A stretch of DNA of 64,000 nt, from NCBI GenBank assembly GCA_964230215.1, contig CAXRGQ010000006.1, forward strand, positions 475,652 to 539,651, read 5' to 3'. Positions 36,696 to 55,581 of this stretch are shown here, in pieces (the stretch's first letter is position 1; each line of letters begins with the position of its first letter). The stretch is from Flavobacteriales bacterium. GTDB taxonomy: Bacteria; Bacteroidota; Bacteroidia; Flavobacteriales_D; JAUILH01. Both the position numbers and the translations under genes were made by a program. The notes below the pieces were generated by a model. The model was not told the origin of the DNA. It made no database searches and worked only from the letters and a program-made list of their open reading frames with translations.

Positions 36696-37574
36696 TTACT
36701 CACCCAAATAATGCTCCATACCTGCAGCTTTTAAAGTTGCTTTGATTTCATCATAGTTAGACAATACATCCCTCGGAGATCCAGATATTTTCTTTAGAGG
36801 TGTGCTCAAATCAGCTCTAGGAATACCCAAAAACTCGAGAACAGGATTGGCACTTTCTGCCGCTTTATCCCGGAAATCCTCGTAATACACCTTTAAATAA
36901 TTATCTCCACTATAACACCGTTCCCATTTTCTATCCTCTATTAACTGATTGTTGATATTCTCAACTAAAAATGATGGATTAATCTCTATTCTATCGTCTA
37001 CTACTTTATCTTCGGTATGCCATGAATTTCTCGCTTTAGCTAACTTTCTTGAGATAATTCTTTCCAGCTTATTTTTGCGTATTAGATGAATAATTTTCAC
37101 TTCTTTTTGCTTTAGATAATTCATCAAAAAATTATTCTGCAATTCGTAATACATGATGTTAAAACCAATGCATTTTTCAATCTCGAAATTCACATTTGGC
37201 ACATACTCTTCCCACGATTCAATTTTTGTCCAAGGTGCTGAATGTTTGGGGTTATTGAATAAGTCATCCATAAACTCGGACAATAGCCGAGTGACAAAAC
37301 CATTATTGGCATGCACAAGAGAATTGTGAAACTGCATTTTTCGATACAACAGCAGCTTTATTAATCTAGAATTTCCGTGATAATCCATCCAACGATATTT
37401 CGAATGATATTTTGGATGCTTGGCAACAAATTGACTAATGGCATCTTTAGCCCCCGACTCCTTCAAGAAAACCTCATCATGGCAGCGAATATCTGGATGA
37501 CTATTTAACAAAAGCCTAAATGCTGTAGACCCAGTTCTCTGGGTTGACAATAATATAAATTTTTGTTTAGCCAT
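36696..37574 (-). CDS. Sulfotransferase (Stf0-like)
   Basis: 292 aa. PSB loop ILLSTQRTGSTAF and IIHLIRKNKLERIISRKLA. Confidence 0.8.
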   Translation of the reverse strand: MAKQKFILLSTQRTGSTAFRLLLNSHPDIRCHDEVFLKESGAKDAISQFVAKHPKYHSKYRWMDYHGNSRLIKLLLYRKMQFHNSLVHANNGFVTRLLSEFMDDLFNNPKHSAPWTKIESWEEYVPNVNFEIEKCIGFNIMYYELQNNFLMNYLKQKEVKIIHLIRKNKLERIISRKLAKARNSWHTEDKVVDDRIEINPSFLVENINNQLIEDRKWERCYSGDNYLKVYYEDFRDKAAESANPVLEFLGIPRADLSTPLKKISGSPRDVLSNYDEIKATLKAAGMEHYLGE

Positions 37575-39697: not shown

Positions 39698-40720
39698 ATG
39701 AGCAATACAGGGAAAGCTGAAATAAGGAAATTAAACACAATTCGTGGCATTGCTGCTTTGATAGTTCTGGTCTCGCATTATTCAAATGATGTAAAGCTAT
39801 TCGATGGGTATCTGGGAAATGGATCAGGTCAAATTGGTGTGATGTTGTTTTTTATACTTAGCGGTTTTCTAATGGCTCACCTTTACATCAACAGACCCTG
39901 GAATGCAGATCAGTCAAAAAACTTTCTGGTGGCAAGGGTGGCACGTGTATTGCCCCTTTTTTACCTTGTTGTATTACTGTCCTATCTCCTAACACAGTTT
40001 ACCAATTTTAGATTTATGTATCCGATTGACGGATTGTCTGATTTTTTATCCCATACCTTATTACTTTCCGGAAAATCTATACTCTGGACAATTCCAGCCG
40101 AAATTCACTTTTACCTAATATTTGTTTTTCTTTGGTTGCTTTATTTCAAGCACAAACTTGCATTCTATATAAGCATTACAATAATCACTTTACTTGCACT
40201 ATTTTTTAGGCTTGACACTTACAACTACGCTTTAGGTTCATTAGACCTAAAACTCTCCATTCTATGGGCAATACCTTACTTTCTGATTGGATGTTTTTTT
40301 GGGATCATTTATACACGTGTAGAATTCAAAAAACACGGTGTATTTGTACTTGCCCTGCCTGCATTAATGATAATCTACCCAAATATATTTGTGGATATAT
40401 TTGGTATGAATCACACAATGTGGAACTCTCCATTAATTTTTGCTTTCTTGTCTGTAGTGTTTTTTGCTGTGGTATTCCTGACGCCAGACTCCAATAGGTT
40501 TTTAGCAAATAAAATTGGTGATTTCTTAGGTAAAATAAGCTACTCATTATATTTATGGCACTTGCCAATTTTAATAATATTATACCCTTACGCTAAAAGC
40601 AATCCATTAATTTTCTTTTTCATTTTTCTGGCAATTTCTCTTGTTGCATCCTACTTGTCATTTAAACTTTTTGAATCACCATGCAGAAAGTATTTGAAGC
40701 GCCTAATTGATAAGAGGTAA
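39698..40720 (+). CDS. Membrane acyltransferase family 3
   Basis: 340 aa and polytopic. LNTIRGIAALIVLVSHY and MLFFILSGFLM. Confidence 0.88.
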   Translation: MSNTGKAEIRKLNTIRGIAALIVLVSHYSNDVKLFDGYLGNGSGQIGVMLFFILSGFLMAHLYINRPWNADQSKNFLVARVARVLPLFYLVVLLSYLLTQFTNFRFMYPIDGLSDFLSHTLLLSGKSILWTIPAEIHFYLIFVFLWLLYFKHKLAFYISITIITLLALFFRLDTYNYALGSLDLKLSILWAIPYFLIGCFFGIIYTRVEFKKHGVFVLALPALMIIYPNIFVDIFGMNHTMWNSPLIFAFLSVVFFAVVFLTPDSNRFLANKIGDFLGKISYSLYLWHLPILIILYPYAKSNPLIFFFIFLAISLVASYLSFKLFESPCRKYLKRLIDKR

Positions 40721-40777: not shown

Positions 40778-41665
40778 ATGAAAAAATGGGTGTTTCATAT
40801 GTCTTGGCTGATGATGTGTTGTTTGCACTGCTCTGCTCAAATAACAATTTTGGGCAACACCAATGTTGTTCTTCATAGCGGCACACAGCTCAAAACGGGA
40901 TCTCTAACGGACACAATCTATGTTAATGCGGGCGCAAATTTCGTAAACGATGGCATTGTTGAATTGGATTCACTAGGATATATATCAGACGAACAAAGCC
41001 CTATTACAGGAATGGGACTTGAACATTATAGAAAAGACCTATTAAACTCGGTTTCATCAGTTAATCCAGGTGGACTGGGATTCATCTTCAACTCTAATAC
41101 ACAGGATTCTATTGGGATTAGCCGTTATCACTCATCTTTTTCAATTGGAGGCGGATCGTCAGTTAACAGATATTATTCAGTTAATAGGGGTAATCCAACT
41201 TCCCAGACTATTTCATTCGATTCACACAGCAGCGAATTAAATGGAAATATAGGTGCTGATCTAATTTTGGCAAGTTCTTTTGATAATGGGGTGACATGGG
41301 AGTTCACGCTTGGCACCACCGATCAAATTAACACACGACTGGATGGAGTGTTGGTTGATTCGTTTGCCATCCATACTTTAATCGACTACAGTGTTGTTGC
41401 AAATGTAGCGGATGAAACTAAGACTCTAGAACTTGATTTTTATCCAAATCCAGTTAATGCCGGGGGTGAAATGATTGTGGTTACAAACGATCATGAAAAA
41501 TGCCTGCTCATTATAAGTGATATGCAAGGACGTATAGTTTATACAACAAAGCTTAGCGCAGCGATTACGCATTTATCACTTTACAATGAAATAGCTCCTG
41601 GACTTTACAATGTAACAGTTTTCGATGATAGTAGCTCTAATTCAAAAAAGCTAGTGGTTAAATAA
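40778..41665 (+). CDS. Secreted protein with T9SS (Por) C-terminal sorting domain
   Basis: Signal peptide MKKWVFHMSWLMMCCLHCSAQ, with the start trimmed from 40739. The C-terminal roughly 80 aa match the T9SS CTD pattern (LDFYPNPVNAGGEMIVV ... GLYNVTVFDDSSSNSKKLVVK). Confidence 0.8.
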   Translation: MKKWVFHMSWLMMCCLHCSAQITILGNTNVVLHSGTQLKTGSLTDTIYVNAGANFVNDGIVELDSLGYISDEQSPITGMGLEHYRKDLLNSVSSVNPGGLGFIFNSNTQDSIGISRYHSSFSIGGGSSVNRYYSVNRGNPTSQTISFDSHSSELNGNIGADLILASSFDNGVTWEFTLGTTDQINTRLDGVLVDSFAIHTLIDYSVVANVADETKTLELDFYPNPVNAGGEMIVVTNDHEKCLLIISDMQGRIVYTTKLSAAITHLSLYNEIAPGLYNVTVFDDSSSNSKKLVVK

Positions 41666-41667
41666 AT

Positions 41668-42465
41668 ATGAATTATCGTCATTACATATTGTTCTTGCTG
41701 CTCATTCTAACTTTAGCTTATCCAGTTAGGGGGCAAGTAGAAGTGGCAGATACTATAAAACTAACCTCCACGCAAAGTTCGTCACGGATTATTACAGGAG
41801 TGGCAAAGCCTTCAAATGAGCTGAACGCTGCAAATGCTGATGGCATTATAAACAACCACCATAAATTTGCCTTAGCTTCAGGCACACCAGATTCGATAGA
41901 TTTGTCCTTGTCACCAAGTATCTCCACATATCTTCCAGGATCACAGGTTATGTTTTTCGCACCATCAAGCAATACAGATAGCGTATTAGTGAATGTTGAT
42001 GGGCTAGGTTTTGTGCCTCTTAACAAGGGATATGGCGTGAAATTAGACTCAGGAGACCTTAAAGCAGGTCTGGTTGTAAACGCCATTTATGATGGAACTC
42101 AATTTATCATATTGTCTGAGTTGAATAAGTCATGCCCATCAGGTTACACGAGCGTAAATGATTATTACTGCATCCATATAGATGAACAAGCAGATAGCGT
42201 TGATTATTGGCAGGCAATTGTGGCTTGCGCTGACGAAAACGCACGTTTGTGCACATGGAGTGAATGGTACAATGCATGCAGAAAATTAGGGACCTCATTG
42301 AATAACATGATAGATAATTGGGAATTTGTTGACGGTGCACAGAATTATCTTGCTGCATCCCCCACTAAAACTAGAGCAAAATTGGCCGGTGAATTTGCAT
42401 GCGAAGAGGGTTCTGGTGGAAATCCAACTGTTCCCAGAGCTTATAGGTGTTGTTATACAAAATGA
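41668..42465 (+). CDS. Secreted Cys-rich protein, paralog 1 (C-terminal C-type-lectin/FGE-like domain)
   Basis: 265 aa with a signal peptide (LTLAYPVRGQ). It shares the IYDGTQF motif and an 8-Cys C-terminal domain CPSGY..VN..YCI...W.A..C...LCTWSEWYNAC...RCCYTK with the next two genes. It begins 2 nt after the upstream stop codon. Confidence 0.85.
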   Translation: MNYRHYILFLLLILTLAYPVRGQVEVADTIKLTSTQSSSRIITGVAKPSNELNAANADGIINNHHKFALASGTPDSIDLSLSPSISTYLPGSQVMFFAPSSNTDSVLVNVDGLGFVPLNKGYGVKLDSGDLKAGLVVNAIYDGTQFIILSELNKSCPSGYTSVNDYYCIHIDEQADSVDYWQAIVACADENARLCTWSEWYNACRKLGTSLNNMIDNWEFVDGAQNYLAASPTKTRAKLAGEFACEEGSGGNPTVPRAYRCCYTK

Positions 42466-43241
42466 AAGCTTTATTAACCATATCTGTATTTTTAACTCTG
42501 TCGAATGTGTCCGGGCAGTTAACGGTGGATAAATCCATAAACTTTACCGCAACTGATTCTAGTAAAAATCAGGTTGTTGGGCACGATGAACCATTTCAAT
42601 TAGACCATGCTGTCAATGTCAACTCGGCGGTTAAAAGTGTGCTTAACTTTAGTAATTCAGTGAGCTATGCTAACAACATAATAAATGTAAACAGAAATAT
42701 TCCTGAACAAAACTATCAGACTGGTATGTCCATTGCTTTCATATCAAATTTTTCTTGTGATGATAGCGTCCAAATTACAATAGATGGAGGTGATACCGCC
42801 TTCATAACTAAAAGCATCACAGAATTATTGGACACAAACAATATAGCTGTCAATCAGTATGTAGAATTAATCTACGATGGAACTAATTTCCAATTATTAA
42901 ACAATACACAAGCTTGTCCATCTGGATTTGTTCAAGTAAATAATAACTATTGTATTCAAATGAACGAATACGGCCCCATGACCATTTATGACGCAATGGC
43001 ATTTTGTGATACGCTAGGAGGTCAATTATGCTCCCTATCCGATTGGTATTATGCATGCCAAAAAACCGATTTAAACCTCCAAGACATGACAAACAATTGG
43101 GAATGGATAAATCATGGAATGGACCATACTAGTGACGCCGCAACAGTTGGAAACGGCGTATGCGAGAGCATCCTTACACAGCAATCTGAGCTATGGCAAG
43201 GAGGAAATACTGCAATTTTTAGATGTTGTTATTACAGATGA
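42462..43241 (+). CDS. Secreted Cys-rich protein, paralog 2
   Basis: Signal peptide MKALLTISVFLTLSNVSGQ. The start ATG overlaps the upstream TGA (ATGA). The C-terminal domain has the same Cys pattern and ends in FRCCYYR. Confidence 0.85.
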   Translation: MKALLTISVFLTLSNVSGQLTVDKSINFTATDSSKNQVVGHDEPFQLDHAVNVNSAVKSVLNFSNSVSYANNIINVNRNIPEQNYQTGMSIAFISNFSCDDSVQITIDGGDTAFITKSITELLDTNNIAVNQYVELIYDGTNFQLLNNTQACPSGFVQVNNNYCIQMNEYGPMTIYDAMAFCDTLGGQLCSLSDWYYACQKTDLNLQDMTNNWEWINHGMDHTSDAATVGNGVCESILTQQSELWQGGNTAIFRCCYYR

Positions 43242-44002
43242 AACAATTGTCAACCATATTACTGATTTTATGCGCTCAATTTTCAATTGCCCAATTTGAG
43301 CTGAATAATGAAATCAATCTTACTGGTTCGACTGAATCGGATCGTCAAGTCTCTAATCTCGGACCTGCGTACGATACCACAAACATAGTTAGTGCGTTAG
43401 ACATTCAATCTAATAGATTGATATATTGTTCAGCAATTGGAAATGACTCGATTCTAGTTAATACTCAGGTGAGCTACAATGCATATCTCCCGGGGAGCGT
43501 ATTGTTAGTTAGAATTGACAGTAATAATGCCGCCTCTCCTGTTATTAATGTGAACGGACTAGGCTACAAAATAATTTTAAAGAACTATGCCGACAGCCTG
43601 CAATCCAATGACTTAATCAAGGGTCAGTTGGTATACCTAATTTATGACGGCGCTAATTTTCAACTGATAAATTGGTTAGAAAACTTTTGTCCTTCAGGAT
43701 TTACAAAGGTTAATAATTCTTATTGTATAGAAGCCGATGAGAATAATGCAAGTAATCTATGGGATGCCATTATTAACTGCAAAAGCAAAAACGCAAAAAT
43801 GTGTACTTGGGCAGAATGGTACTATGCCTGTCAAAAAACTGGACTAGGCCTTCTAAACATGACCAACAATTTTGAGTGGCTAAACTGCCCGATAAACAAT
43901 CCAAATCAAGCTCTAATAATTGGTAATGGTGACTGTTTAACAGGTACTGCTAGTCACGCAACTACCACATCCTACAATTTCCGCTGTTGCTATGCGAAAT
44001 AA
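43238..44002 (+). CDS. Secreted Cys-rich protein, paralog 3
   Basis: Signal peptide MKQLSTILLILCAQFSIAQ. It has an ATGA start/stop overlap with paralog 2. The C-terminal domain has the same Cys pattern and ends in FRCCYAK. Confidence 0.85.
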   Translation: MKQLSTILLILCAQFSIAQFELNNEINLTGSTESDRQVSNLGPAYDTTNIVSALDIQSNRLIYCSAIGNDSILVNTQVSYNAYLPGSVLLVRIDSNNAASPVINVNGLGYKIILKNYADSLQSNDLIKGQLVYLIYDGANFQLINWLENFCPSGFTKVNNSYCIEADENNASNLWDAIINCKSKNAKMCTWAEWYYACQKTGLGLLNMTNNFEWLNCPINNPNQALIIGNGDCLTGTASHATTTSYNFRCCYAK

Positions 44003-45284
44003 AATATTAGCAGCCCTCGTTATCATATGTTTTTCTGCTCCTCATATTAAGTCACAGAGCGACATTACCTGCTATTCTCCTAGCCAATCGCCAATTATCT
44101 TGCTTTCATACTACGGGTTGTCACATGACACAATAGCGTGTTACCAGCCTGATAAGGACGGAGTCGTCAACGTACCTCAAGAATTAGCTGAAGGGTTTTA
44201 TACAATTTCTCAAAACTCATTAAGTCGGGATTTTATTTTTACACCTAAAGAAAAACTCTCTATCTACTTTAATGATTCAACAATCGATTTGTCCTATTCT
44301 TTGGAAAATAATCTACTAGATACGGTTAGGCACAAATACCTCTCCTATAAGACAAGAAAAGATAACTTGTTGTTAATTAAACGCAATGCCCAGGATAATG
44401 AAATTCATGCGACAAGAATTGATAGCATTATTGGCAAATTGCAACACGACTTTAATCATGAACTTAATGAGCTTAAGTTAAAGTACCCTAGCTCATATGC
44501 AATTATTAGTACCTGCACATATATTGAGAAACTCACAAGTAATAGTAAATCATCTTATTTCTACAACTTAGTAATTGACAAAAAGTATTTGAATTCCACC
44601 CTGTACCCTAATATCTTTATGAACTACTTTAAGGAACATACAGCATATGATGAAAGTGGATTTAAATCAAGCATTGACACCATTCTGTACTATACCAGTT
44701 CTGATCAGTCCGTATATAATTATGCGTTAAAATTTATTCTTGAACTATTCGATAAGGTCGGACCTAAAATAATTTATGATTACATAATAGATAATTACTT
44801 ATTAAATGGTGGCTGCAACGAAGGAACAGAACTGGTAGATAAAGCTATATTAGAGGGTTACCTTAGCCTAAGAATCGGAAACAAACCGGATAATATAGAT
44901 ATTCTCGGCAAGGATCTATACTCTATTTGTAGCGCAAAAGACCATAACATTATTGTCTTTTGGTCATCTCATTGTTCATTTTGTAAGGAAGCTTTACCAG
45001 AACTATTAAGACTTCAATCAAAGACGGATAACATCAATATCATAGCGTTTTCATTAGATACAGATTTAAGTAACAATTACTATTTAAATGTACTTAACAA
45101 TTACCCGTGGACACATGTCTGTGATAAGAAATCATGGGATTCACCATATGTTAATCACTTCAAGATAAACAAAACGCCAAGCATCTTTTATTTGGATAGA
45201 TCGAGTACGATACTTGGTAAAAACTTAAGCACTATAGAACTAGAAAAACTTATAAAAGCTAGGCAAAATTCGACAGATCAATAA
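43992..45284 (+). CDS. TlpA/ResA-like thioredoxin-fold thiol-disulfide oxidoreductase with long N-terminal extension
   Basis: 430 aa with a signal peptide (FSAPHIKSQ). The C-terminal thioredoxin fold has a CxxC active site (IIVFWSSHCSFCKEALPEL) and a cis-Pro region (NKTPSIFYLD). It overlaps paralog 3 by 11 nt. Confidence 0.8.
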   Translation: MRNKILAALVIICFSAPHIKSQSDITCYSPSQSPIILLSYYGLSHDTIACYQPDKDGVVNVPQELAEGFYTISQNSLSRDFIFTPKEKLSIYFNDSTIDLSYSLENNLLDTVRHKYLSYKTRKDNLLLIKRNAQDNEIHATRIDSIIGKLQHDFNHELNELKLKYPSSYAIISTCTYIEKLTSNSKSSYFYNLVIDKKYLNSTLYPNIFMNYFKEHTAYDESGFKSSIDTILYYTSSDQSVYNYALKFILELFDKVGPKIIYDYIIDNYLLNGGCNEGTELVDKAILEGYLSLRIGNKPDNIDILGKDLYSICSAKDHNIIVFWSSHCSFCKEALPELLRLQSKTDNINIIAFSLDTDLSNNYYLNVLNNYPWTHVCDKKSWDSPYVNHFKINKTPSIFYLDRSSTILGKNLSTIELEKLIKARQNSTDQ

Positions 45285-46407
45285 ATTTTCTTGCAAAACT
45301 GCTAATTGCCTTATCATAAGCTCCAACAGCGTCATAGTCAACAGAAAAATTCTCATTTTGCATAAGCACCATCAACTCATCGGCATTTTTTGGATCGAAA
45401 TGCGTACAGTTCTTGTCAACCTGCTCCAAATGAACAGGAATATTTGAAACAATTATGTGCTTTCCAAGTGCCTTTGCATCCTCAACTACTGTACTCCATC
45501 CTTCAAATAGCGAGGGTTGAATAATTGCTTTGGCATTCTGCATGATACACAATTGCTCAAGTCTATCCATAAATCCTAAAAAGATAACATTGTCACCTAA
45601 ACCATTTTCATTTACAAATGCTTTTAATTTGTTCACATAATCTACGTTTCTAAAATCTTTTTCCTTTCCAGAGAATAACAGCAATGGAACTTTGCCTCCG
45701 GCCTGCTTAATTAATCTCATGGCTTCAAGAACGACCAAATGATTTTTATGCGCCCAGAACTGATTTGGCGTGAAAAAATAGTCGTTATTAATTCCGTATC
45801 TCTCCTTAAGCTCATTAAAACTAACTGCCGAAAAATCAGGGTGTGTTACAGCAAATTCTAACACGGTGGTATTTGCCTTCGCATCTGGGTATAGCTCTTT
45901 AAAATGTGATTGAGCATCCTTACTACTAAGAACAACCAAATCATAGTCTTTAGCCACCATTATTTGGTGTTTTTTGCGTCTCGCAATAATCTCATCCGTA
46001 AACAAATGTGGTAAATAGGCTTCTTGAAAATCTGGTATCCATACGATCTTCTTTAAACCTTTGGATTTCACATGTTTTGAGTACATAGGGTACAAAAAAT
46101 CTATGTTTACATTCACATTTGAGTTATAGGCTAGGTTTTTTCCAGCAACTAATCTATACACCCTATTTACCATGCGAAACATAAGATTTGGCACGGCAGG
46201 AAATTGGATGAATTCCAGATACGGATAATCGGTTCCATCCTTGACATTGTTATAATTCTCTGTATTATTGGTAAGAATTATGAAAACAGGCTTTTCCTTG
46301 TCATCCAAGGTCTTGCACGCCTTAATAATATTTAATACGTAATAGGTTCCAGCTATCCAATCTTCTTTATAGCTATATATTAATCCAATCCTTTTTCTTG
46401 ACACCAT
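45259..46407 (-). CDS. Glycosyltransferase (GT-B, GT4/GT1-like)
   Basis: 382 aa. C-terminal QPSLFEGWSTVVEDAKALGKHIIVSNIPVHLEQ (E-x7-E). Confidence 0.8.
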   Translation of the reverse strand: MVSRKRIGLIYSYKEDWIAGTYYVLNIIKACKTLDDKEKPVFIILTNNTENYNNVKDGTDYPYLEFIQFPAVPNLMFRMVNRVYRLVAGKNLAYNSNVNVNIDFLYPMYSKHVKSKGLKKIVWIPDFQEAYLPHLFTDEIIARRKKHQIMVAKDYDLVVLSSKDAQSHFKELYPDAKANTTVLEFAVTHPDFSAVSFNELKERYGINNDYFFTPNQFWAHKNHLVVLEAMRLIKQAGGKVPLLLFSGKEKDFRNVDYVNKLKAFVNENGLGDNVIFLGFMDRLEQLCIMQNAKAIIQPSLFEGWSTVVEDAKALGKHIIVSNIPVHLEQVDKNCTHFDPKNADELMVLMQNENFSVDYDAVGAYDKAISSFARKFIDLSNFA

Positions 46408-47282
46408 TGATAAAACTTATTTAAGCCATCTATCATGGCAACCTTTGGAGTAAACCCAATTTTCTGAATCTGATTTACGTCTGCTTTCCAGTTACTCGGA
46501 TCACCTTTCCTGGTTTCACCGCTAAACTCAAACTGCACGCCGTCTGAAACTAGACCGTAGAACATATCCACCACATCACTTATTTTCATTTCAGTTCCTG
46601 AAGCAGCATTAATTGCCTGACCTTCAAACTTACACTTATTAATACACAAATCAATGATTGATATCAGATCATCTATATAAATATAGTCCCTTGATTCATC
46701 GCCCGTTCCAAACAATTTAATTGGTCCATCTGTTGCAATGTATTTCTGATAAAGATCCCAAAACAATTGCTTTTTCAAGCCTTCTCCATAAGCAGAAAAA
46801 ACCCTTAAACTGAGCGTTTTAATATTGAAATTCTCGTAGAACTCCGTGCATATCTGCTCTGCCATAAGCTTATGTTTACCGTAGGGCGATATAGGCTTTA
46901 ATTGTGAATCTTCATGGATAGGCAATTGAATTGGATTACCATATACAGCGGCACTAGACATGTTAATAAACTTACAATCGGGATTATACCTTCTGATGGC
47001 GTCCAATTGCATAAATACGTTGTGTGTATTTAATAAAAAATCTCTGTCTGGATGCTTTATACTATCGGGTACACTAGCTGCTCCGGAACAGTTGATGCAA
47101 ATATCGAATGACTGATCTCTAAACAAATCTCTGTAGTCAGCACTGCTCGCATCAAGTAGAATGTAATTACTGGCCGTGTAGTCCACAATAACGTCAGCTC
47201 CCCATACATCATACTTATTTGAGAAGTAACTCACACAATGTGCCCCAATAAAACCTTTTGATCCAATTACTAATACCTTCAT
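46380..47282 (-). CDS. NAD-dependent sugar epimerase/dehydratase
   Basis: 300 aa. VLVIGSKGFIGAH and catalytic YGKHK. Confidence 0.85.
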   Translation of the reverse strand: MKVLVIGSKGFIGAHCVSYFSNKYDVWGADVIVDYTASNYILLDASSADYRDLFRDQSFDICINCSGAASVPDSIKHPDRDFLLNTHNVFMQLDAIRRYNPDCKFINMSSAAVYGNPIQLPIHEDSQLKPISPYGKHKLMAEQICTEFYENFNIKTLSLRVFSAYGEGLKKQLFWDLYQKYIATDGPIKLFGTGDESRDYIYIDDLISIIDLCINKCKFEGQAINAASGTEMKISDVVDMFYGLVSDGVQFEFSGETRKGDPSNWKADVNQIQKIGFTPKVAMIDGLNKFYQWCQEKGLD

Positions 47283-48145
47283 TTTTTTATACCAATATAT
47301 GTATACATTCTCCCAGGTATTTTTGCTTCATTATATGCATCACTACTATTGAAATTAATCTTTTTTCGATATAGCCTTTGTATTAATCCTATGTTTGCCA
47401 AGATACCAAGCCTGCGTTTTAAATGATTAATCATGGCCTTTTCTTTAGACTCACCAAGTTGAATGTATTCTTCCTTGGTAATTGGATAATAATTGATGAC
47501 TGAATCAAAATGTTTTAACTCTTTTTGAACTTCAATGTTTGCAGAAGTCATTGCATTGCGATATTCAGTTGCAGTATACGCATTCTCACCACCATAGAAT
47601 TTATGCAATGGATGCATCTCTAAAAACCATTCTTTATCCTCCTTGTTGTATATAACATGATCCCTTACCGTTAAGAGAAGACCACCAGGCTTTAATACCC
47701 TGGCACACTCTAAAATAAATTTATTTAAATCATTTGCATGATGCATAGCCTGTCTGACATAAACTACATCAAACACACTATTATCAAATTTTATTTCCTC
47801 CGCAAATGATTCATATATTTTAAGGTTGTCTAAACTATGTTGTTGCTTAAGTTTTCTTATCGCTCCTGCTCCAATGGTATCGCTTGGGTCAGGTTCAACC
47901 GCATGAACCTCAAATCCAGAATTTGCAAATGCCACAGAGCTAATTCCATTACCGGCTCCAATATCCAATATTAATTTTGCCTTAGGTGCATAAAGTTTAA
48001 TCAGTTCTAATGTTGCTTCAAACTCCTCACCATCACCAAATCGCTGCACATTGAGGTCTAAATCCTTTTCAAAATATGCTTTTTCGACTAGATCCTTGTA
48101 AGACGGCTCATTTCTAATAAATTCGATTGTTTCTTCCCAAGTCAT
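47279..48145 (-). CDS. Class I SAM-dependent methyltransferase
   Basis: 288 aa. Motif I ILDIGAGNGISS and post-I acidic residue VHAVEPD. Confidence 0.85.
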   Translation of the reverse strand: MTWEETIEFIRNEPSYKDLVEKAYFEKDLDLNVQRFGDGEEFEATLELIKLYAPKAKLILDIGAGNGISSVAFANSGFEVHAVEPDPSDTIGAGAIRKLKQQHSLDNLKIYESFAEEIKFDNSVFDVVYVRQAMHHANDLNKFILECARVLKPGGLLLTVRDHVIYNKEDKEWFLEMHPLHKFYGGENAYTATEYRNAMTSANIEVQKELKHFDSVINYYPITKEEYIQLGESKEKAMINHLKRRLGILANIGLIQRLYRKKINFNSSDAYNEAKIPGRMYTYIGIKK

Positions 48146-48756
48146 TGTATGATTTTCTTTACCTCTTTTGCAGGATTACCAGCATAGACACTATCAGCAG
48201 GAACATCCGTAACCACAACACTTCCGGCCGCGATTACCGCTCTTTCTCCAATAACTACCCCTTTCATTATAACAACGTCAAATCCTATCCAAGCCTTATC
48301 ACCTATAATTATCGGTTTAGACTCAACTTTATCCCAATTCTTATACTTGCCAATGGCACCCTCAACTATACCCTTCTTCCAATCCTTTACATCATTCTTC
48401 CGTTCTTCCCAATAAATTGAATGTGCGTTATTATCCATAAACGTGCATCCCCAGGATATTAAAACATCATCACCGACTGTAATACTGTTAATACATATAA
48501 ATTTACATCCCCCACCAACGAATGTCCTACTTCCAATCTTAACTACGCCTTCGTCATTTTCAAATATATAGCTACCAGAAACTACACTATCATCACCAAT
48601 TACAAGTCTTATGGCTTCATTTTTACTTCTATTCGACAGTTTAATTGAATCAGTTAATGAGCTATCGCCTGATTGTATGTATAATTGCTTTGAAACAGTG
48701 TTATCTGGCTTACCACTGCCTAATAGTTTTCTATATACCTTTTTTAATAACCCCAT
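48142..48756 (-). CDS. Hexapeptide-repeat (LbH) acetyltransferase
   Basis: 204 aa. Hexapeptide repeats and the C-terminal motif VPADSVYAGNPAKEVKK, typical of WbbJ/maltose-O-acetyltransferase-like enzymes. Confidence 0.85.
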   Translation of the reverse strand: MGLLKKVYRKLLGSGKPDNTVSKQLYIQSGDSSLTDSIKLSNRSKNEAIRLVIGDDSVVSGSYIFENDEGVVKIGSRTFVGGGCKFICINSITVGDDVLISWGCTFMDNNAHSIYWEERKNDVKDWKKGIVEGAIGKYKNWDKVESKPIIIGDKAWIGFDVVIMKGVVIGERAVIAAGSVVVTDVPADSVYAGNPAKEVKKIIQ

Positions 48757-49685
48757 TTAACATTCAAATCAATCTTAATAATCTCAGACAATCTATTGAT
48801 ATCGCTTTTATATTTAATCATCAAGGTATCATACGTCTCTTTGTTGATTTTGAGTTTTCCATCATCAACAATATTGTTTTCAAGAATTTTATTGGCATAA
48901 GCTCTGCCAATCGCGTTCGACATTAGACGATTAAATCCTCTTTTAATTCCATACGCATAATATTGTTTTCGAGCACTCTTGATACTGACAGATTTATTGA
49001 CCTCCTCAAGCTTAAACTCTCGTTCATCAACTCCTATAAAACTACAAATAGAATTCAATACTTCATTCTGGTTTTGTTTAAAATCTTCATAAAGGTAAAC
49101 TTTCACATTTTCTGCTCCCATGGCCTTATAAAAACGCTCAACTTGATCTGCGTACAGACCAGAATTAAAATACAGGTAGTTATTCTTAAAACTGTGGTCC
49201 TGCTTGGATAGTGAAATTTTTCCAGATATTCTATCATCCTCGACCTGTAACGCTTCTTCAAACGTCTCTGCTTTTTCATAACCACTCATTACCATCCAAT
49301 TATATAATGAAAATGCCCTTTTAGCAGGATTTCTTAACATAATAATTATCTTGGCAGCCGGTGCCTCTCTTTTTATAATTTGAGCACTATTTGGGCTAGA
49401 TAAGTAGGCATGACACACCTCTCCTATCATTTGATTCTCTGTTGCCTCTAGAAAATGTTCTAAATATTTGTCTTTATCATTAATACCGTAGATATCCGAA
49501 TAATAGCCTAATTCTTTAAAGCGAATATCACTTGTTACAAAGATCTGTGGGTGATTCTGAAAGTACTTCCATAATGCTGTAGTCCCACTTTTTGCAGCTC
49601 CAACAACCAGAAAATCAGGATTTCTCATAGACGACATTATAATTAAATAATTCAAGTTGCGCTTTTGAAACGGCATTGAATTCAT
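48744..49685 (-). CDS. Sulfotransferase (heparan-sulfate-sulfotransferase-like, Sulfotransfer_1 type)
   Basis: PSB loop FLVVGAAKSGTTALWKYF and 3'-PB IIIMLRNPAKRAFSLY. The real start is probably an internal Met at 49637 or 49628, which would reduce the 71-nt overlap with the upstream gene. Confidence 0.82.
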   Translation of the reverse strand: MNSMPFQKRNLNYLIIMSSMRNPDFLVVGAAKSGTTALWKYFQNHPQIFVTSDIRFKELGYYSDIYGINDKDKYLEHFLEATENQMIGEVCHAYLSSPNSAQIIKREAPAAKIIIMLRNPAKRAFSLYNWMVMSGYEKAETFEEALQVEDDRISGKISLSKQDHSFKNNYLYFNSGLYADQVERFYKAMGAENVKVYLYEDFKQNQNEVLNSICSFIGVDEREFKLEEVNKSVSIKSARKQYYAYGIKRGFNRLMSNAIGRAYANKILENNIVDDGKLKINKETYDTLMIKYKSDINRLSEIIKIDLNVKWGY

Positions 49686-50460
49686 CTATGTATTCCTTAT
49701 TTGGAAACAACTTTTGGCTTCCTGATACGCCCTTATCAATAAATCCCTTACCCTTGGCAAAACCATTTTCAGATCTCATTTTCATCCAATCTGTTCTACT
49801 TTCCAGCGATTTCATATGCTCAATTGAGGTCAAGTCAGCAACTTTTTTCATTTCTTCATCTGATCTTTTAATTTCTAAGAAATCACAAATCCTTTTAATA
49901 ACTTCAATCTTCTTGTCAATTATGTCTTCAAATTTCAGGACCATAAATTTATCCAGATTTGTTCTTTGAACCATCCATTCATTTACATGGTTATGCCAAT
50001 ATGTACCCATTATCTGGGTCTTACACGCTAACGCTCCATTTAAATCAAACTTATGTCCCATTTTCTCCATCATCACAGAATACGAAATTAGAGCATCCCG
50101 ACCATCTCTCACTAAATATATAACCTTTCTGTGATGATGTTTTGGTAATTCATGTGACTTAAAAAAACAAGTGTCATTTACTCTAAAATAGTACTTGTTA
50201 GCATATACATCTGGACATATTAGATTGACTAACGATCGACCAGCCTGCTCATTTATGCCATAATATAAGTGCGCTATAATATGCTGCATTAATGTGTTCC
50301 CGGACTTAGGAAACCCCACAATAAAGACATCCTTTTCTGAGAACTTCCCCATCTTTTCAACACCACCAGGAAATGAAGCATTAATCTTTATCGATAGCTT
50401 CTCTTGCTCAACAGATTGACCGCTGTCTCCAGATAAAGATCGTATTATCCGTTTAATCAT
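49615..50460 (-). CDS. Sulfotransferase (aryl/cytosolic-type Sulfotransfer_1)
   Basis: 281 aa. PSB loop FIVGFPKSGNTLMQH and 3'-PB VIYLVRDGRDALISY. Confidence 0.82.
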   Translation of the reverse strand: MIKRIIRSLSGDSGQSVEQEKLSIKINASFPGGVEKMGKFSEKDVFIVGFPKSGNTLMQHIIAHLYYGINEQAGRSLVNLICPDVYANKYYFRVNDTCFFKSHELPKHHHRKVIYLVRDGRDALISYSVMMEKMGHKFDLNGALACKTQIMGTYWHNHVNEWMVQRTNLDKFMVLKFEDIIDKKIEVIKRICDFLEIKRSDEEMKKVADLTSIEHMKSLESRTDWMKMRSENGFAKGKGFIDKGVSGSQKLFPNKEYIDEFNAVSKAQLELFNYNVVYEKS

Positions 50461-51739
50461 ACTTATTAATTTCCCACCTAACTTCAGGTGCTGTTATTCC
50501 GGCTAACAAAACATTCTGTCTGGTGCCAGAGCTAGTCATTTTTTCAAGATTAATCTCCAATACATTGCTAATTTTAAACAGTTGTTTAACATTCGGAACA
50601 CCGGCCTGCAATTGAACTATATAAGATCCTTGATTGAAGAAGTTTTTAGGCAAGATTGCACTAATTGAATACTCTCCGATTGGCTTAACAATATCATCAA
50701 CATCATGACTACTAGTGACAAATAACACCACTTGATTTCTATCCATCACAGTAATGTTAAACCTCATATCTCTTATTTCAGAGAGTATTTTATAGTCTAC
50801 CCTAATTTCAATTTCATGATGTGTTGAAAATGTTTCATTAATCTTACCCTCATGATTACGCGCACTAACTTGAACAATTTGCAATTCATTGGTTGTAGCT
50901 TCCTTAGGAATAAAAATTCCTTCTCTACCTGTGTTAGTGTTTTCTTGGTTCAAATAATAATCAATTGCCTTATCTGTATCTCCAGTAAAAACCAATCTTC
51001 CATTATTAAGCACACAGCAGCGTGTACAAAGATTTCTAATACTGGACATATTGTGGCTAACAAAAAGCACTGTTCTGCCCTCTGAAGAGCTCACGTCCTT
51101 CATTTTACCGATGGCCTTTTTCTGAAATTCAGCATCTCCAACTGCCAAAACCTCATCTACAATTAAAATTTCAGGTTCTAAAAATGCAGCCACGGCAAAC
51201 CCCAAGCGCACTCGCATTCCTGAAGAAAATCTTTTCACAGGTGTATCGACATATTTCAAACAGCCCGCAAAATCAACAATTTCGTCAAATTTACTCGCAA
51301 TCTCTTGCTTATTCATTCCCATTATTGCACCGTTCAAATAAATATTTTCCCGTGCGGTCATATCGGGATGCATCCCCGTTCCAACTTCTAATAATGATGC
51401 AATTCTTCCATTTGCCTTGATAGCCCCTTTTGTTGGAGATGTAATTTGCGAAATCAATTTTAACAAAGTGGATTTACCGGCACCATTTCTACCAATAATT
51501 CCTACAACTTCTCCTTGCTTAACCTCCAAGTTTATATCGTTTAAAACCAGAGCATAACCGCTATCTGACTTTTTCGTTCTATCATTCTCTTCACCTACCA
51601 GACTAAACGGGTCCTCTTTGCCTCTAATTCTAGCCCACCATCGGTTGAGATCACTTGATATTGTCCCCGTTCCAATTTCTCCTAGTTTATACTGTTTGTA
51701 TAAATGCTCTATTTTCAATGCAACTTTAGTCATAGACAA
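50453..51739 (-). CDS. wzt: O-polysaccharide/teichoic-type ABC exporter ATP-binding protein with C-terminal extension (Wzt)
   Basis: 428 aa. Walker A GRNGAGKST, signature FSSGMRVRL and Walker B ILIVDEV. About 170 extra C-terminal residues resemble the beta-sandwich Wzt_C glycan-cap-binding domain. Confidence 0.88.
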   Translation of the reverse strand: MSMTKVALKIEHLYKQYKLGEIGTGTISSDLNRWWARIRGKEDPFSLVGEENDRTKKSDSGYALVLNDINLEVKQGEVVGIIGRNGAGKSTLLKLISQITSPTKGAIKANGRIASLLEVGTGMHPDMTARENIYLNGAIMGMNKQEIASKFDEIVDFAGCLKYVDTPVKRFSSGMRVRLGFAVAAFLEPEILIVDEVLAVGDAEFQKKAIGKMKDVSSSEGRTVLFVSHNMSSIRNLCTRCCVLNNGRLVFTGDTDKAIDYYLNQENTNTGREGIFIPKEATTNELQIVQVSARNHEGKINETFSTHHEIEIRVDYKILSEIRDMRFNITVMDRNQVVLFVTSSHDVDDIVKPIGEYSISAILPKNFFNQGSYIVQLQAGVPNVKQLFKISNVLEINLEKMTSSGTRQNVLLAGITAPEVRWEINKYD

Positions 51740-51746
51740 ATCATGA

Positions 51747-52592
51747 TTATACAGTATCTACAAAGTTTTTCTCGGTTCTACTGAAAACAATGACACCCAA
51801 AAGTAAAATAACGAATGCACATATAGAGGCATAAGCAATTCCTTGAAAAGAGAACTCTCCTTTTGCAAGAAACGCGTATTTAAAGGTCTCAACGATATGT
51901 GCCATTGGATTCAAGCTAATAATCGTTTTTAATTTCCCCTCTACCATGCTCATCGGATAAATAATTGGTGTTGCATACATAAGAAGTTGCACACCAAACT
52001 GCAATAAGAACTTTAAATCCCTGTACTTTGTAGTTAGAGATGTAAATATCAATCCAAAGCCAAGGCCCAGCGCAGCCATAAGAACCACCAAATAAGGAAC
52101 AACTATAACCGATTCATTTAAATACACCTCACCACCATTAATCGCATAATACGCATACACTGCCGCGAAGAGTAAAAATTGTATCCCAAACTTTATAAGC
52201 CCTGACATTACCACAGACAAGGGCACAATTAGTCTTGGAAAATATACCTTACCAAACATATCCTGATTTTTACCAAAGGTATCTGAGGTCTGGATGAAAC
52301 ATTCTGAAAAATAATTCCAGATAATAATACCACACAAATAAAACAATGGTTTTGGAATGCCATCAGATGGTAATCCTGCAATATTCCCAAATATGACTAT
52401 ATACACCGCCATGGTCATTATTGGCTGTACCACATACCAAATGGGGCCCAGAATCGTTTGTTTATAAACGGTGATTATGTCTCGTTTAACAAATAAAAAA
52501 AGTAAATCCTTGTACCTGTATACTTCTTTGAAATTAACATCAAAGACTTTCTTTTTAGGCTCTATGATTATATCCCACTTATTTTTCTCCAT
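51747..52592 (-). CDS. wzm: ABC-2 type polysaccharide export permease (Wzm)
   Basis: 281 aa with 6 TM segments. The N-terminal motif RDIITVYKQTILGPIWYVVQP is typical of the ABC-2/Wzm family, and the gene lies directly upstream of wzt. Confidence 0.88.
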   Translation of the reverse strand: MEKNKWDIIIEPKKKVFDVNFKEVYRYKDLLFLFVKRDIITVYKQTILGPIWYVVQPIMTMAVYIVIFGNIAGLPSDGIPKPLFYLCGIIIWNYFSECFIQTSDTFGKNQDMFGKVYFPRLIVPLSVVMSGLIKFGIQFLLFAAVYAYYAINGGEVYLNESVIVVPYLVVLMAALGLGFGLIFTSLTTKYRDLKFLLQFGVQLLMYATPIIYPMSMVEGKLKTIISLNPMAHIVETFKYAFLAKGEFSFQGIAYASICAFVILLLGVIVFSRTEKNFVDTV

Positions 52593-52860: not shown

Positions 52861-55581
52861 ATGAAAAATTCTACTTACTCAATTCATTTTTTCTCAACCA
52901 TCGCACTACTGTGTGTTTCGCTGTTTGCAAATGCAGGTACGTTTACCAGTCATACATCAGGTAACTGGAATGCAGGTGCTGCCGTTTGGACAATTGTTGG
53001 TGATGCTGATGGAATTCCTGATGCAGATGATGATATAATTATTACATCCGGCACAACCGTTATATGGGGCCAGACCACAACGCAATTTTGCAGAGACTTG
53101 ACTGTGAATGCAGGTGGAGTACTTCAGGGAAAAAACAACTTTAGTAGAACCTTAAGAATTCATGGGAATCATGTGAACAATGGAACTGAAACCTTGGCAG
53201 GGACAATATTTTACATGGGGAGTGGAACTACCATTTCTGGTTCAGGAACATTTTCAACATTATATAATTGGGCTTTCTTAACAGATAGAACTTTGTTAGC
53301 TGGAGCAACCGTATCCAAAGGAAGATGGATTAGACTGTATAACGGTGCTGACTTCACAAACCGCGGCACACTTACTTGTCAAAGTTCAGTTATTGCTTAC
53401 AACGCAGCCAGTGTCTTTACGAATGAAAACAACTTAACTATAAGAGCGTCTAATTTTATGACAACAGGTACGTTTAATTCTCACTTTGTTGGAAATACGG
53501 TTACGCTGCACTGGAATCCAGCAATCACAGGAAATGAAAACATTCCCAATCCATCTGCAGGATACTATAATGTAATAGTCAATGCTTCTTCATCACACTA
53601 CAAGTTTACTGCAGATATGATTATTGCCAATGATCTTACTATAAACAACACATCTCCTGTTTTAAATTTTGATGTATTCGATTTGAATATTGGTGGAGAT
53701 TGGACGAACAACGGTGGGTCATTGACAAGTGCAGGAAGTAGCACTATCACCTTTGATGGGAGTGGAACACAAGTTATATCACATGGTACAAATCCACAGC
53801 AAGGATTGTTTACCACCATAATTGATATCAACTCGACTTTGCAATTAAATACAGATTTAAATATAAATGGAGATTTCACAGTGCTTGGAGCTATGGATGC
53901 TACTGCAGCTAACCACAACGTAACAGTAAATGGTGATGTAAATATCACTGGTACCTTGGACATGCAAAATGGAGAGTTCACTTTCAATGGGTCGTCAGCT
54001 CAAACAATGGATGCTAGTGGAACGATTAACTTTTATGATTTAACAATTCAGAACTCAAGTACTGGTGTAACCCTAAATACTGGAACTTATACTATCGATA
54101 ATAATGTTGTAGTAAATGATGGAGGATTAAACACGAATGGTAATGGATTTACATTATTAGCGAATGGCACACAATCTGCTCGAATTAGATTCATCAACGC
54201 TGGTACATCTATTACTGGAAATGTTACGCTGCAAAGAAACCTTCCAGCAGGAAGCGCAGATTACAGAGACTTATCTAATCCATTTACTGGTGGCATTGAT
54301 TTCAGTCAATGGGATGATGACTTAATTATTAGTGGAACTGGATTCCCTGATGGATGCGCATACGGCGGTGGATGTTTTGCCTCTATTAAGACTTTTGATG
54401 CTTTTTCGCAAACGTATAGTGACGTAACTAACGTAACCGATCCTATGGAGAACTCTATTGGGTATGAAGCTTTCCTTGGTGATGATTTGAACACTTTTAG
54501 CGGTGTACAACTTGATGTAACTGGGACAGTAAATGGTGCTGCTGGTTTCTTACAAAATGTGAGAGCCGGTTGGAATTTGGTAGGAAACCCTTACGCATGT
54601 GAAATTGATTGGCACAGTATGTCATTAGGTGCTGGTGTGGGTGATTTCTTTTACATCTATGATAGCGGAACAGGGAATTTTGAATATTATGAGGTAACTG
54701 GTCCTGGCACAGGAACAGCGTCTGGTAACATTAACACTAATGGTATTATCGCATCAATGCAAGGATTTTGGGTTAATACTAACTCTAATACCAATTTAGT
54801 ATTCGGTCAATCATCAAAAACTGAAGCCAGTGTAGATTTTGTAAGAAGTACTGGTACAATTGATAGAGACCAATTGGCTATCACAATCAAAAATAATGAC
54901 AACGATTATAGCTGTAAGTCTACTGTTAGATTTGATGCGTTAGCAATTGATAACACAGATGATTATGATGTTCCAATGTTTAGAGGACCTGAGCGACCAA
55001 CGGTTCGCAAAAGCCCGTTGCTTTTCTTCAGAAATAGTGATGGTACTGACGTAAGACTCAATGCGCTTAATTACGATTATGCTATCAGCAAAACTATTGA
55101 TGTATGGATGAATACTGAAATAGATGGAAGGTTTACAATTTCAGCTAATGACGTTGATGTATTTGGGACTTATAAGTGTGTGTTCCTAAATGACAAGTTT
55201 ACTGGAGAATCGGTGAACCTAAGAAAATCTGATTATACTTTTACACAACTTGCAAGCACTGAAGATTTGGATCGTTTTGAAATACTATTGTCAAATGAAT
55301 CCAATTGTGATATTGAAGAAATTGCTTCTTTAGATGATAATTCACTTGATTATGTAATTGGTTATTCCGAAGAATTCGTTAGAGTTACATTGTTTGAAGA
55401 TCAATCTTCAATTACCACTACGAGTATTAAAGTATTCAATATGCTTGGCGAACTTGTTGAAGTTGCTACATTCTCAGGAAATACATTCGATATTAATAAA
55501 TCTAACTTGAGTCCTGGTATGTATATTGTTCAAATGAATAATGGCTTAGCTGAATCTTCTGCCAAGTTTGTAATTAAGTAG
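52861..55581 (+). CDS. Large secreted protein with T9SS C-terminal sorting domain (adhesin-like, probable beta-helix repeats)
   Basis: 906 aa with a signal peptide (LLCVSLFANAG). The body is Thr/Asn/Gly-rich and repetitive. The C-terminal CTD reads IKVFNMLGELVEV...LSPGMYIVQMNNGLAESSAKFVIK. Confidence 0.82.
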   Translation: MKNSTYSIHFFSTIALLCVSLFANAGTFTSHTSGNWNAGAAVWTIVGDADGIPDADDDIIITSGTTVIWGQTTTQFCRDLTVNAGGVLQGKNNFSRTLRIHGNHVNNGTETLAGTIFYMGSGTTISGSGTFSTLYNWAFLTDRTLLAGATVSKGRWIRLYNGADFTNRGTLTCQSSVIAYNAASVFTNENNLTIRASNFMTTGTFNSHFVGNTVTLHWNPAITGNENIPNPSAGYYNVIVNASSSHYKFTADMIIANDLTINNTSPVLNFDVFDLNIGGDWTNNGGSLTSAGSSTITFDGSGTQVISHGTNPQQGLFTTIIDINSTLQLNTDLNINGDFTVLGAMDATAANHNVTVNGDVNITGTLDMQNGEFTFNGSSAQTMDASGTINFYDLTIQNSSTGVTLNTGTYTIDNNVVVNDGGLNTNGNGFTLLANGTQSARIRFINAGTSITGNVTLQRNLPAGSADYRDLSNPFTGGIDFSQWDDDLIISGTGFPDGCAYGGGCFASIKTFDAFSQTYSDVTNVTDPMENSIGYEAFLGDDLNTFSGVQLDVTGTVNGAAGFLQNVRAGWNLVGNPYACEIDWHSMSLGAGVGDFFYIYDSGTGNFEYYEVTGPGTGTASGNINTNGIIASMQGFWVNTNSNTNLVFGQSSKTEASVDFVRSTGTIDRDQLAITIKNNDNDYSCKSTVRFDALAIDNTDDYDVPMFRGPERPTVRKSPLLFFRNSDGTDVRLNALNYDYAISKTIDVWMNTEIDGRFTISANDVDVFGTYKCVFLNDKFTGESVNLRKSDYTFTQLASTEDLDRFEILLSNESNCDIEEIASLDDNSLDYVIGYSEEFVRVTLFEDQSSITTTSIKVFNMLGELVEVATFSGNTFDINKSNLSPGMYIVQMNNGLAESSAKFVIK

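Follow-up and report, generated by a model that had tools for sequence, protein, structure and literature searches.

The closest described relatives of the proteins considered here are fibres. Bd2740 of Bdellovibrio is a surface-displayed fibre with a signal peptide and a trimeric C-type-lectin tip, which does not bind calcium and resembles the phage protein Mtd, and for it, as for the other mosaic adhesive trimer (MAT) fibres of Bdellovibrio bacteriovorus, the surface anchor has yet to be identified (PMC10769870); in phage Pa193, gp47 forms a trimeric beaded fibre, whose three chains clasp a single baseplate-protein loop in a ratio of 3:1 (PMC11456595). The stretch of a Flavobacteriales genome analysed here (64,000 nucleotides, referred to below as the window) carries, on the + strand at 40778-45284, a module of five genes: G1, predicted to encode a type IX secretion system (T9SS) cargo protein; three tandem paralogs, P1, P2 and P3, in which a tail-fibre bead is followed by a compact C-type-lectin-like tip; and G5, predicted to encode a thioredoxin-fold protein. 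Each of these parts is of a known kind, and it is their combination, the miniature format of the fibre and the rule that the paralogs come in threes that are new. As a whole, the module looks like a small device for recognition at the cell envelope that descends from receptor-binding proteins of phages, and the reading that we tentatively favour is that it is a trimeric, probably heterotrimeric, mini-fibre adhesin, folded with the help of G5 and displayed by way of the T9SS-anchored G1.

The junctions between the five genes, checked base by base, are as tight as a preliminary description of the window had stated: one pair of genes is 2 nt apart, two pairs overlap in an ATGA and one pair shares 11 nt. 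G1 (40778-41665, 295 aa) ends with the TAA stop at 41665, and 2 nt (AT) beyond it lies the ATG of P1 (41668-42465, 265 aa); P2 (42462-43241, 259 aa) overlaps P1 in the ATGA at 42462-42465, P3 (43238-44002, 254 aa) overlaps P2 in the same manner at 43238-43241, and G5 (43992-45284, 430 aa) begins with the ATG at 43992, 11 nt of it being shared with P3, the stop of which occupies 44000-44002. The start of G1 is ambiguous (40739, 40778 or 40799), the best signal peptide being obtained from 40778 and public gene calls giving 288 or 295 aa, and P2 and P3 have alternative longer open reading frames (ORFs), each starting 15 nt further upstream. All five products were also said to carry signal peptides, and in all five a hydrophobic, signal-peptide-like N-terminus followed by Gln can be read from the sequence, with cleavage predicted between this Gln and CSA, VRG, VSG, SIA and IKS in G1, P1, P2, P3 and G5, respectively. 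The Gln column is found in all the full-length homologs. Substrates of signal peptidase I in Bacteroidota prefer Gln at position +1, and the Gln after all five signal segments fits this preference. The window sequence is identical to contig JBETKO010000024 of the metagenome-assembled genome (MAG) GCA_041260045.1, and the module has a GC content of 0.37 in a locus of 0.36; a scan for promoters and terminators, made with a sigma-70 consensus that is unsuited to Bacteroidota, gave the same counts as shuffled sequence.

P1, P2 and P3, about 250 aa each and predicted from their N-termini to be exported by Sec, have no Pfam or NCBIfam family, and their mutual identity of 29-36% marks them as true paralogs. 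Their common plan consists of the signal peptide, a neck motif, one tail-fibre bead domain and a C-type-lectin-like domain (CTLD) as the tip, which occupies residues 156-265 of P1 (42133-42462, with 8 Cys), 152-259 of P2 (42915-43238) and 151-254 of P3 (43688-43999). The AlphaFold2 (AF2) model of P3 has a predicted local distance difference test score (pLDDT) of 82.5 overall and >90 in the C-domain, and in Foldseek searches its N-domain matched the tail fibre of Pseudomonas phage Pa193 (9b45_2, E 2e-5) and, in BFVD, many fibres of uncultured phages (the best with E 5e-12), and its C-domain matched the tip of Bd2740 (8oks, with a template-modelling score, TM, of 0.69-0.72). The family profile leads to the same two proteins, to gp47 at residues 231-324 (E 6e-6) and, with the spacing of the Cys conserved, to the tip of Bd2740 (E 1.9e-4), and residues 22-142 of P1 match phrog_28171 (E 2e-6). 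Each paralog, in other words, joins a phage tail-fibre bead to a compact tip homologous to the trimeric tip of Bd2740. The P3 tip is also matched, with a Foldseek probability of 1.0, by the CTLDs of NKR-P1, CD72, the mannose receptor and snake-venom lectins, single-domain CTLDs giving a target-normalised TM of 0.5-0.7, and the modelled tips belong by fold to the C-type lectin-like domain superfamily; the word lectin, when applied to P1-P3, is a label for this predicted fold and does not imply that sugar is bound. The three tandem Cys-rich, lectin-like paralogs of the preliminary description are thereby upheld, the predicted structure being a C-type-lectin-like fold and not a set of unrelated ones. 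Eight Cys of the C-domain are invariant among 27 family members, enough for four disulfides per paralog, the minimum proposed at that time; that first reading had missed the descent from phage tail fibres, the relationship to the Bd2740 tip and the strict copy number in multiples of three.

The family is a small one. Searched against 5.8 billion proteins, the paralog profile found only 42 relatives, 26 of them full-length or nearly so (194-284 aa) and the other 16 with one of the two domains, mostly the bead; several of these single-domain relatives are phage-like, with Gly_rich_2 or Mtd_N domains or tail-fibre PHROGs. The same tip is found at the end of long fibres with GNVGIGT repeats in four of the loci compared here, L017 (748 aa), L020 (576 aa), L018 (Omnitrophota) and L019 (Bdellovibrionales). 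The highest entropy and the most indels of the family fall at residues 221-248 of P3, in the distal loops of the CTLD, which is also where Mtd-type C-lectin receptor-binding proteins have their variable region, and a distal tip that is both variable and rich in indels fits a ligand-binding surface.

Compared with the described systems, P1-P3 share with the MAT fibres and Bd2740 a chromosomal location, a phage-fibre-like build, a Sec signal peptide and a C-terminal tip with a C-type-lectin fold, which in Bd2740 is calcium-independent. The MAT fibres, however, are proteins of 600-1100 aa with a conserved beta-rich N-terminal domain of ~130 aa and a long trimeric shaft, encoded by single, scattered genes present in many copies, without a T9SS or thioredoxin partner, whereas P1-P3 have one bead and no shaft, measure about 250 aa, carry the eight invariant Cys and are encoded as ordered triplets, in Flavobacteriales glycan loci, beside the gene of a T9SS cargo protein and, frequently, that of a thioredoxin-like one. 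With the tips homologous (E 1.9e-4, TM 0.69-0.72), P1-P3 can be called, at most, miniature relatives of the MAT fibres. Mtd of the Bordetella phage BPP-1, known from its diversity-generating retroelement (DGR), also has a beta-sandwich followed by a trimerising C-lectin tip, the C-terminal tip surface being the most variable, and a relative of the P bead domain carries Mtd_N; P1-P3 differ in having no Mtd_N, no template/variable repeat and no reverse transcriptase, and in being cellular, disulfide-rich proteins with a signal peptide. In gp47 (PDB 9b45), the bead at residues 231-324 of the trimeric shaft aligns with the paralog N-domain, but gp47 is a virion protein of 962 aa and this one bead domain is what the two have in common. 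Among Bacteroidota, RemA of Flavobacterium johnsoniae is a T9SS-dependent mobile surface lectin that interacts with the polysaccharide of its own cell; it is a single large protein that bears both a T9SS C-terminal domain (CTD) and a SUEL-type lectin domain, whereas in the module P1-P3 are separate from the CTD-bearing G1 and have a different fold. Full-text literature searches found no description of the gene combination, which the preliminary description had likewise not recognised as a known system, and searches for DUF5106 and for CotH together with T9SS returned nothing relevant.

The module is not peculiar to the window. A forward scan of one genome per species (185,579 species), made with an 8-sequence subset of the paralog alignment, gave 15 loci; 11 of these (L006-L016) come from MAGs of Flavobacteriales or Bacteroidia and carry the paralogs in tandem. 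As far as the contigs reach, phmmer and hmmsearch show in these 11 the same order, a G1-like gene, then three or six paralogs, and often a G5-like gene: the first is upstream of the paralogs in all the loci with upstream sequence, L008 included, and the last is directly downstream of them in L006-L010 and L013. A reverse search, in which loci were picked by similarity to the G1 N-domain alone, came back to the paralogs in 6/6 loci with the G1 architecture (L021, L022, L024, L027, L028 and L029), and the four contigs of sufficient length hold exactly three. In L022 the order is G1-G5-P-P-P, a G5-type gene lying between G1 and the paralogs (L022/L023:6882-8246), and the linkage has thus outlived a rearrangement. 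In all, the module is found in about 20 loci, from Flavobacteriales or from metagenomes, where the synteny is stable at an identity of only about 30-60% between paralog orthologs. The homologs are therefore linked and not scattered, from whichever end they are searched, and the recurrence of the same gene set in about 20 independent loci places the module beyond chance.

The number of paralogs follows a strict rule. In the complete loci, with split or fused genes counted as copies, there are three in 12 and six in 3 (L012, L014 and L015), no other count being found in 15/15. The split and fused genes, which may be assembly errors or pseudogenes, are two frameshifted copies in L012 (7525-9207), a frameshift with read-through in L014 (10868-12339) and a P1-P2 fusion in L021 (1370-2830). 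In neighbour-joining trees with 100 bootstraps the paralogs form position-specific clades with supports of 66-95%, P1 grouping with the position-1 copies of L006, L007 and L021 (81%) and the position-2 copies forming a clade of their own (86%). The copies of the six-copy loci pair as 1 with 4, 2 with 5 and 3 with 6, so that the whole triplet must have been duplicated as a unit, and in L016, which begins at a contig end, the three copies that can be seen cluster with those at positions 4-6. Since the relatives of both domains are trimeric, the triplet would be the stoichiometric unit of one trimer.

G1 is a predicted type-A T9SS cargo protein, consisting of a signal peptide (residues 1-20), a conserved N-domain (residues 21 to ~210) and a type-A CTD (residues 222-295, 41441-41662), and its secretion and anchoring to glycan are predicted from this architecture. 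The CTD scores 37.2 bits against TIGR04183 (cut-off 23) and 25.7 bits against PF18962, just under the cut-off of 27. The AF2 model, built with 47 homologs and with a pLDDT of 91, consists of short-strand, beta-solenoid-like turns, a beta-sandwich and the CTD, and this last superposes with the CTDs of NucA and mirolase (TM 0.75-0.81), in support of the T9SS-CTD protein of the preliminary description. The N-domain has no Pfam family, and a fold search with it gave no specific PDB match, only generic beta-sandwiches from which no function can be read. An exhaustive HMMER search of 1.84e9 proteins brought together 176 cluster representatives of the N-domain family (E<=1e-3), many with the ~295-aa architecture of G1, and a word-indexed protein search with G1 returned only G1 itself. 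No T9SS core genes are present among the window ORFs scanned.

Two observations touch on G1. The window contains a second CTD protein, of 906 aa (52861-55581, +), an indirect hint that the host may encode a T9SS; the T9SS CTD is its sole recognisable domain, and it lies 7.5 kb from the module, past the Wzm/Wzt genes. It is highly conserved in two related loci (L006:5499-8240 and L007:4746-7487; E 0 to 3e-204): the homolog of L006 follows G5 at a distance of ~1.5 kb downstream, and that of L007 is the gene next upstream of G1. The protein may thus be one more partner of the module. A fibre gene of an unrelated MAG (GCA_016929055.1, L026:1-2156), ending in a YadA-head repeat and Peptidase_S74, runs into the beginning of another gene, which encodes a 478-aa protein with a G1-like domain. 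With an H_lectin gene close by, the G1-like domain is here associated for a second time with a trimeric fibre.

G5 is, by its sequence, a predicted periplasmic CxxC thioredoxin-fold protein of the TlpA/ResA-like group. After a signal peptide (residues 1-21) and an N-terminal part of ~300 aa comes the thioredoxin domain (residues ~314-410, 44931-45221), with the active site CSFC at residues 328-331 (44973-44984) and 48.2 bits against Thioredoxin_8 (cut-off 27), so that the CxxC thioredoxin fold first proposed is secure. The long N-terminal extension is also present, but it is no novelty, being predicted to be of the DUF4369/DUF5106 type that is common in Bacteroidota; DUF5106 is found in 4/8 homologs and DUF4369 in 2/8. 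All 8 homologs keep the CxxC and the cis-Pro of the TP motif, and the profile matches the PDB entries 3hcz (E 1e-23), 3fw2, 3fkf and 4yod, with E from 1e-23 to 4e-13, as well as ResA and TlpA. G5 is grouped by its profile and domain content with these TlpA-like DUF4369/DUF5106 proteins of Bacteroidota, whose PDB entries bear generic names (“thioredoxin-like protein,” “possible thiol-disulfide isomerase,” “thiol-disulfide oxidoreductase”) and for which we know of no assigned substrates, whereas G5 is tied to a lectin triplet. Its subfamily is rare, with 3 matches among 5.8e9 proteins in a word-indexed search.

The dipeptides within the CxxC of the G5 family are SF, AH, GH, PF, DH, SH, PY and NF, none of them with Pro at the third position, where a typical reductase would have C-x-P-C. 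ResA and TlpA have Pro in that position, and DsbA, DsbC and PDI have an aromatic residue or His ahead of the second Cys, as in the G5 family, so that the active-site pattern of G5 seems closer to that of oxidases or isomerases than to that of reductases. The best NCBIfam match of G5 is TrbB (TIGR02738; E 3.7e-7), although with 30 bits where the cut-off is 132. TrbB/TraF- and DsbC-type isomerases resemble G5 in being CxxC thioredoxin-fold proteins encoded beside presumed Cys-rich secreted clients; given this score, the N-part of the DUF4369/DUF5106 type and the absence of conjugation genes, the likeness of G5 to TrbB is one of analogy only. The dedicated redox partner of the preliminary description holds in part: G5 is a frequent partner of the paralogs, linked to them in 10 of 16 loci, but not an obligatory one. 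In L020, a Marinilabiliaceae MAG, G5 adjoins the gene for the 576-aa fibre, a remote relative that ends in the tip of P1-P3.

These components may be assembled as follows, always within the reading of a displayed mini-fibre. P1, P2 and P3 would come together in a single trimer, in all likelihood a heterotrimer with one chain of each (1:1:1), because their genes are found in no arrangement other than the ordered triplet, whether single or duplicated. G5 would be the dedicated oxidase or isomerase of the 12 disulfides of each trimer, in a role similar to that of TrbB towards the F-pilus assembly proteins in F-type conjugation. G1 would leave the cell through the T9SS and be held on the surface glycan by its CTD, and it could offer a single-copy dock to the three neck segments, in the 3:1 manner of a phage fibre on its baseplate, with the tips pointing outward. 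The distal loops of the tips would then bind a ligand, perhaps a glycan, either the possibly sulfated polysaccharide of the cell itself or one on particles or other cells. Our confidence falls along this chain, from the trimeric binders to the disulfide help of G5, then to the heterotrimer, to G1 as dock or carrier and, finally, to the glycan ligand.

Several facts weigh against the displayed adhesin. P1-P3 have neither a CTD nor a lipobox and hence no known route over the outer membrane, and the literature gave no documented case of co-export of a CTD-less partner by the T9SS. The N-domain of G1 occurs in T9SS or other secreted proteins without paralogs nearby (L025, L026 and L030), and G5 is absent in 6/16 loci. 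As regards the ligand, Lectin_C has no Pfam match in P1-P3 at E<=1; in the family alignment only ~45 residues follow the WIGL-like NNWEW motif of the tips, which, by this reading, appear to lack the canonical long-loop region that binds Ca2+ and sugar; and the related Mtd binds protein, so that glycan binding is not implied. For the heterotrimer, position-specific fixed residues number 5 in the window's clade, equal to the permutation maximum of 5; they are clearer in the other clade, which has 14 where permutation gives at most 6. Finally, all the hosts are uncultured MAGs.

In the window, the module is embedded in a glycan locus that extends over ~38 kb (about 19.6-58.3 kb), flanked by housekeeping genes and containing glycosyltransferases (GT1, GT2 and GT4), epimerases, a DegT aminotransferase, sulfotransferases, Wzm/Wzt and a Wzc-like protein. 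The immediate neighbours named in the preliminary description are confirmed by Pfam, with an Acyl_transf_3 gene (39698-40720, +) 57 nt upstream of G1 and a GT1 glycosyltransferase gene (45259-46407, -), convergent with G5, that opens the downstream block of glycan genes. The former may be co-transcribed with the module, of which it is no conserved member, the genes upstream of G1 varying between loci; the latter has homologs near the module in L007 and L013. There are at least four sulfotransferase genes (29565-30449, 36696-37574, 48744-49685 and 49615-50460), which together with the export pair Wzm/Wzt (50453-52592), with its Wzt_C domain, suggest that the polysaccharide is heavily sulfated and is produced through the ABC-dependent pathway, something that, to our knowledge, is unusual among the O-antigen and capsule loci of Flavobacteriales. 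The link to glycan loci holds generally, with glycosyltransferase or epimerase genes beside the module in all the related loci that have enough flank, as a GT4 and epimerase pair in 8 and as GT1/GT2, epimerase or methyltransferase genes in others; in L022 a GT1/epimerase/methyltransferase/hexapeptide-transferase block of the same Pfam families as in the window adjoins it. A regular neighbourhood of Wzm/Wzt or sulfotransferase genes, about which the preliminary description had asked, is not borne out: among the flanks compared, sulfotransferase homologs occur only in the window, L009 and L010, and none of the other loci whose +/-10 kb flanks were compared with the window genes has Wzm/Wzt homologs.

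Other observations concern this setting and the flanks of the module. The 3′ ends of G5 (+) and of the GT1 gene (-) overlap by 26 nt (45259-45284), which leaves no space for a terminator, and ORF coordinates indicate comparable convergent overlaps in L009, L010 and L013. In L022, the hexapeptide-transferase, methyltransferase, epimerase and GT1 genes belong to the same families as those at 45259-48756 of the window and lie on the opposite side of the module. In L010, a complete 5.9-Mb chromosome of a Flavobacteriales MAG, a sulfotransferase-like gene homologous to that at 36696-37574 of the window stands between G1 and the first paralog (L010:7610-8440). Just upstream of the glycan locus, the window encodes (15733-18957, +) a protein of 1074 aa with Reg_prop beta-propeller repeats, Y_Y_Y and a SpoIIE (PP2C) phosphatase; the usual output partner of Reg_prop/Y_Y_Y is a histidine-kinase/response-regulator module. 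In 11 of the related loci (L008, L009, L010, L011, L012, L013, L014, L015, L024, L027 and L028) a gene of the CotH kinase family (about 480-585 aa) and a gene for a membrane protein of ~135 aa form a pair upstream on the opposite strand, as in L009:728-2723 and L024:950-3019. Some of the CotH copies have Fn3_assoc/CHB_HEX_C_1 domains, and in one clade the pair is directly divergent from G1; the 64-kb window has no homolog of this pair.

Among the rival explanations, the nearest to our own is that P1, P2 and P3 form three separate homotrimeric mini-fibres, each with its own ligand and merely co-expressed, in the manner of the multiple MAT fibres of Bdellovibrio. All the known relatives, the phage fibres and Bd2740, are indeed homotrimers, the distal tip loops are the most divergent part between the paralogs, and few position-specific residues are fixed in the window's clade. 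A repertoire of this kind should, however, gain and lose copies, and yet the 15 complete loci all keep three or six in order, the sole expansion being the duplication of the whole triplet; we regard this explanation as a doubtful one, though one to be taken seriously. Somewhat harder still to believe is the boldest form of the adhesin itself, an obligate 1:1:1 P1-P2-P3 lectin with its own disulfide catalyst that rides on G1 through the T9SS translocon; if true, it would be the first “piggy-back” export by the T9SS and the first heterotrimeric adhesin of the tail-fibre type, a bacterial counterpart of heterotrimeric recognition molecules of the C1q/collagen type. The absence of an outer-membrane export signal in P1-P3, the constant presence of the module within glycan loci and the sulfotransferase-like gene that separates G1 from the paralogs in L010 would suit a role in the periplasm, where the paralogs would bind the nascent polysaccharide during export, chain-length control or attachment and G1 would be the substrate or acceptor linked to the glycan. 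We consider this improbable, since the homologs found for both domains all come from external fibres or receptor-binding proteins, and since the flanking glycan genes vary and, without Wzm/Wzt in the other +/-10 kb flanks compared, offer no conserved pathway partner.

The remaining explanations carry far less weight. That the tips are enzymes, miniature domains similar to FGE/SUMF1 acting on sulfated glycan or on sulfatases, is suggested by a weak match of P2, and of P2 only, to FGE-sulfatase (PF03781; E 0.024), itself a member of the C-lectin fold superfamily, by 2afy at rank 50 of the Foldseek matches and by the several sulfotransferase genes of the locus. The match, however, covers 46 residues with 14.8 bits, under the Pfam cut-off of 23.3, a domain of ~100 aa stands against a model of 255 positions, the best matches in sequence and fold are fibre tips and CTLDs, and most of the related loci have no sulfotransferase homolog in the flanks compared, so that an enzymatic role is very unlikely; membership in the FGE-sulfatase family was rejected because of the score below cut-off and the wrong domain size. 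Least probable of all, and hardly to be entertained, is that the module is a remnant of a prophage or tailocin without a cellular role, or the target of a DGR. A bead with a C-lectin tip is typical of phage receptor-binding proteins, and one relative carries Mtd_N, but the flanks hold no phage genes, the GC content is that of the locus, the products have Sec signal peptides with Gln at +1, and synteny is kept at the low ortholog identities given above. With respect to a DGR, the region of 38-48 kb contains a single pair of 27-nt repeats (74% identity), outside the module and with no template/variable repeat, and the genes annotated in the flanks of the module (about 33-54 kb of the window) do not include a reverse transcriptase. 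Both the DGR target and the prophage or tailocin were thus rejected, as was a known defence system, for which PADLOC gave no match.

If the displayed adhesin is what the module encodes, Bacteroidota would have turned phage receptor-binding modules into devices of the cell surface, a conversion known so far mainly from the predatory Bdellovibrio. The T9SS cargo gene next door to the paralogs would be a concrete candidate for the anchor of such fibres, a question posed by the MAT fibres, and the module would provide a simple genetic system for the co-export of CTD-less partners by the T9SS. The triplet rule predicts a heterotrimeric fibre, which would be unusual for tail-fibre folds, and the P1-P3 set is proposed as the first specific set of substrates for one of the TlpA-like DUF4369/DUF5106 proteins. 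Lastly, in these uncultured Flavobacteriales, known only as MAGs, the module keeps its place in polysaccharide loci, of which some contain sulfotransferase genes, and this hints at a part in the organisation of the cell's own glycan, in aggregation or in attachment to particles.

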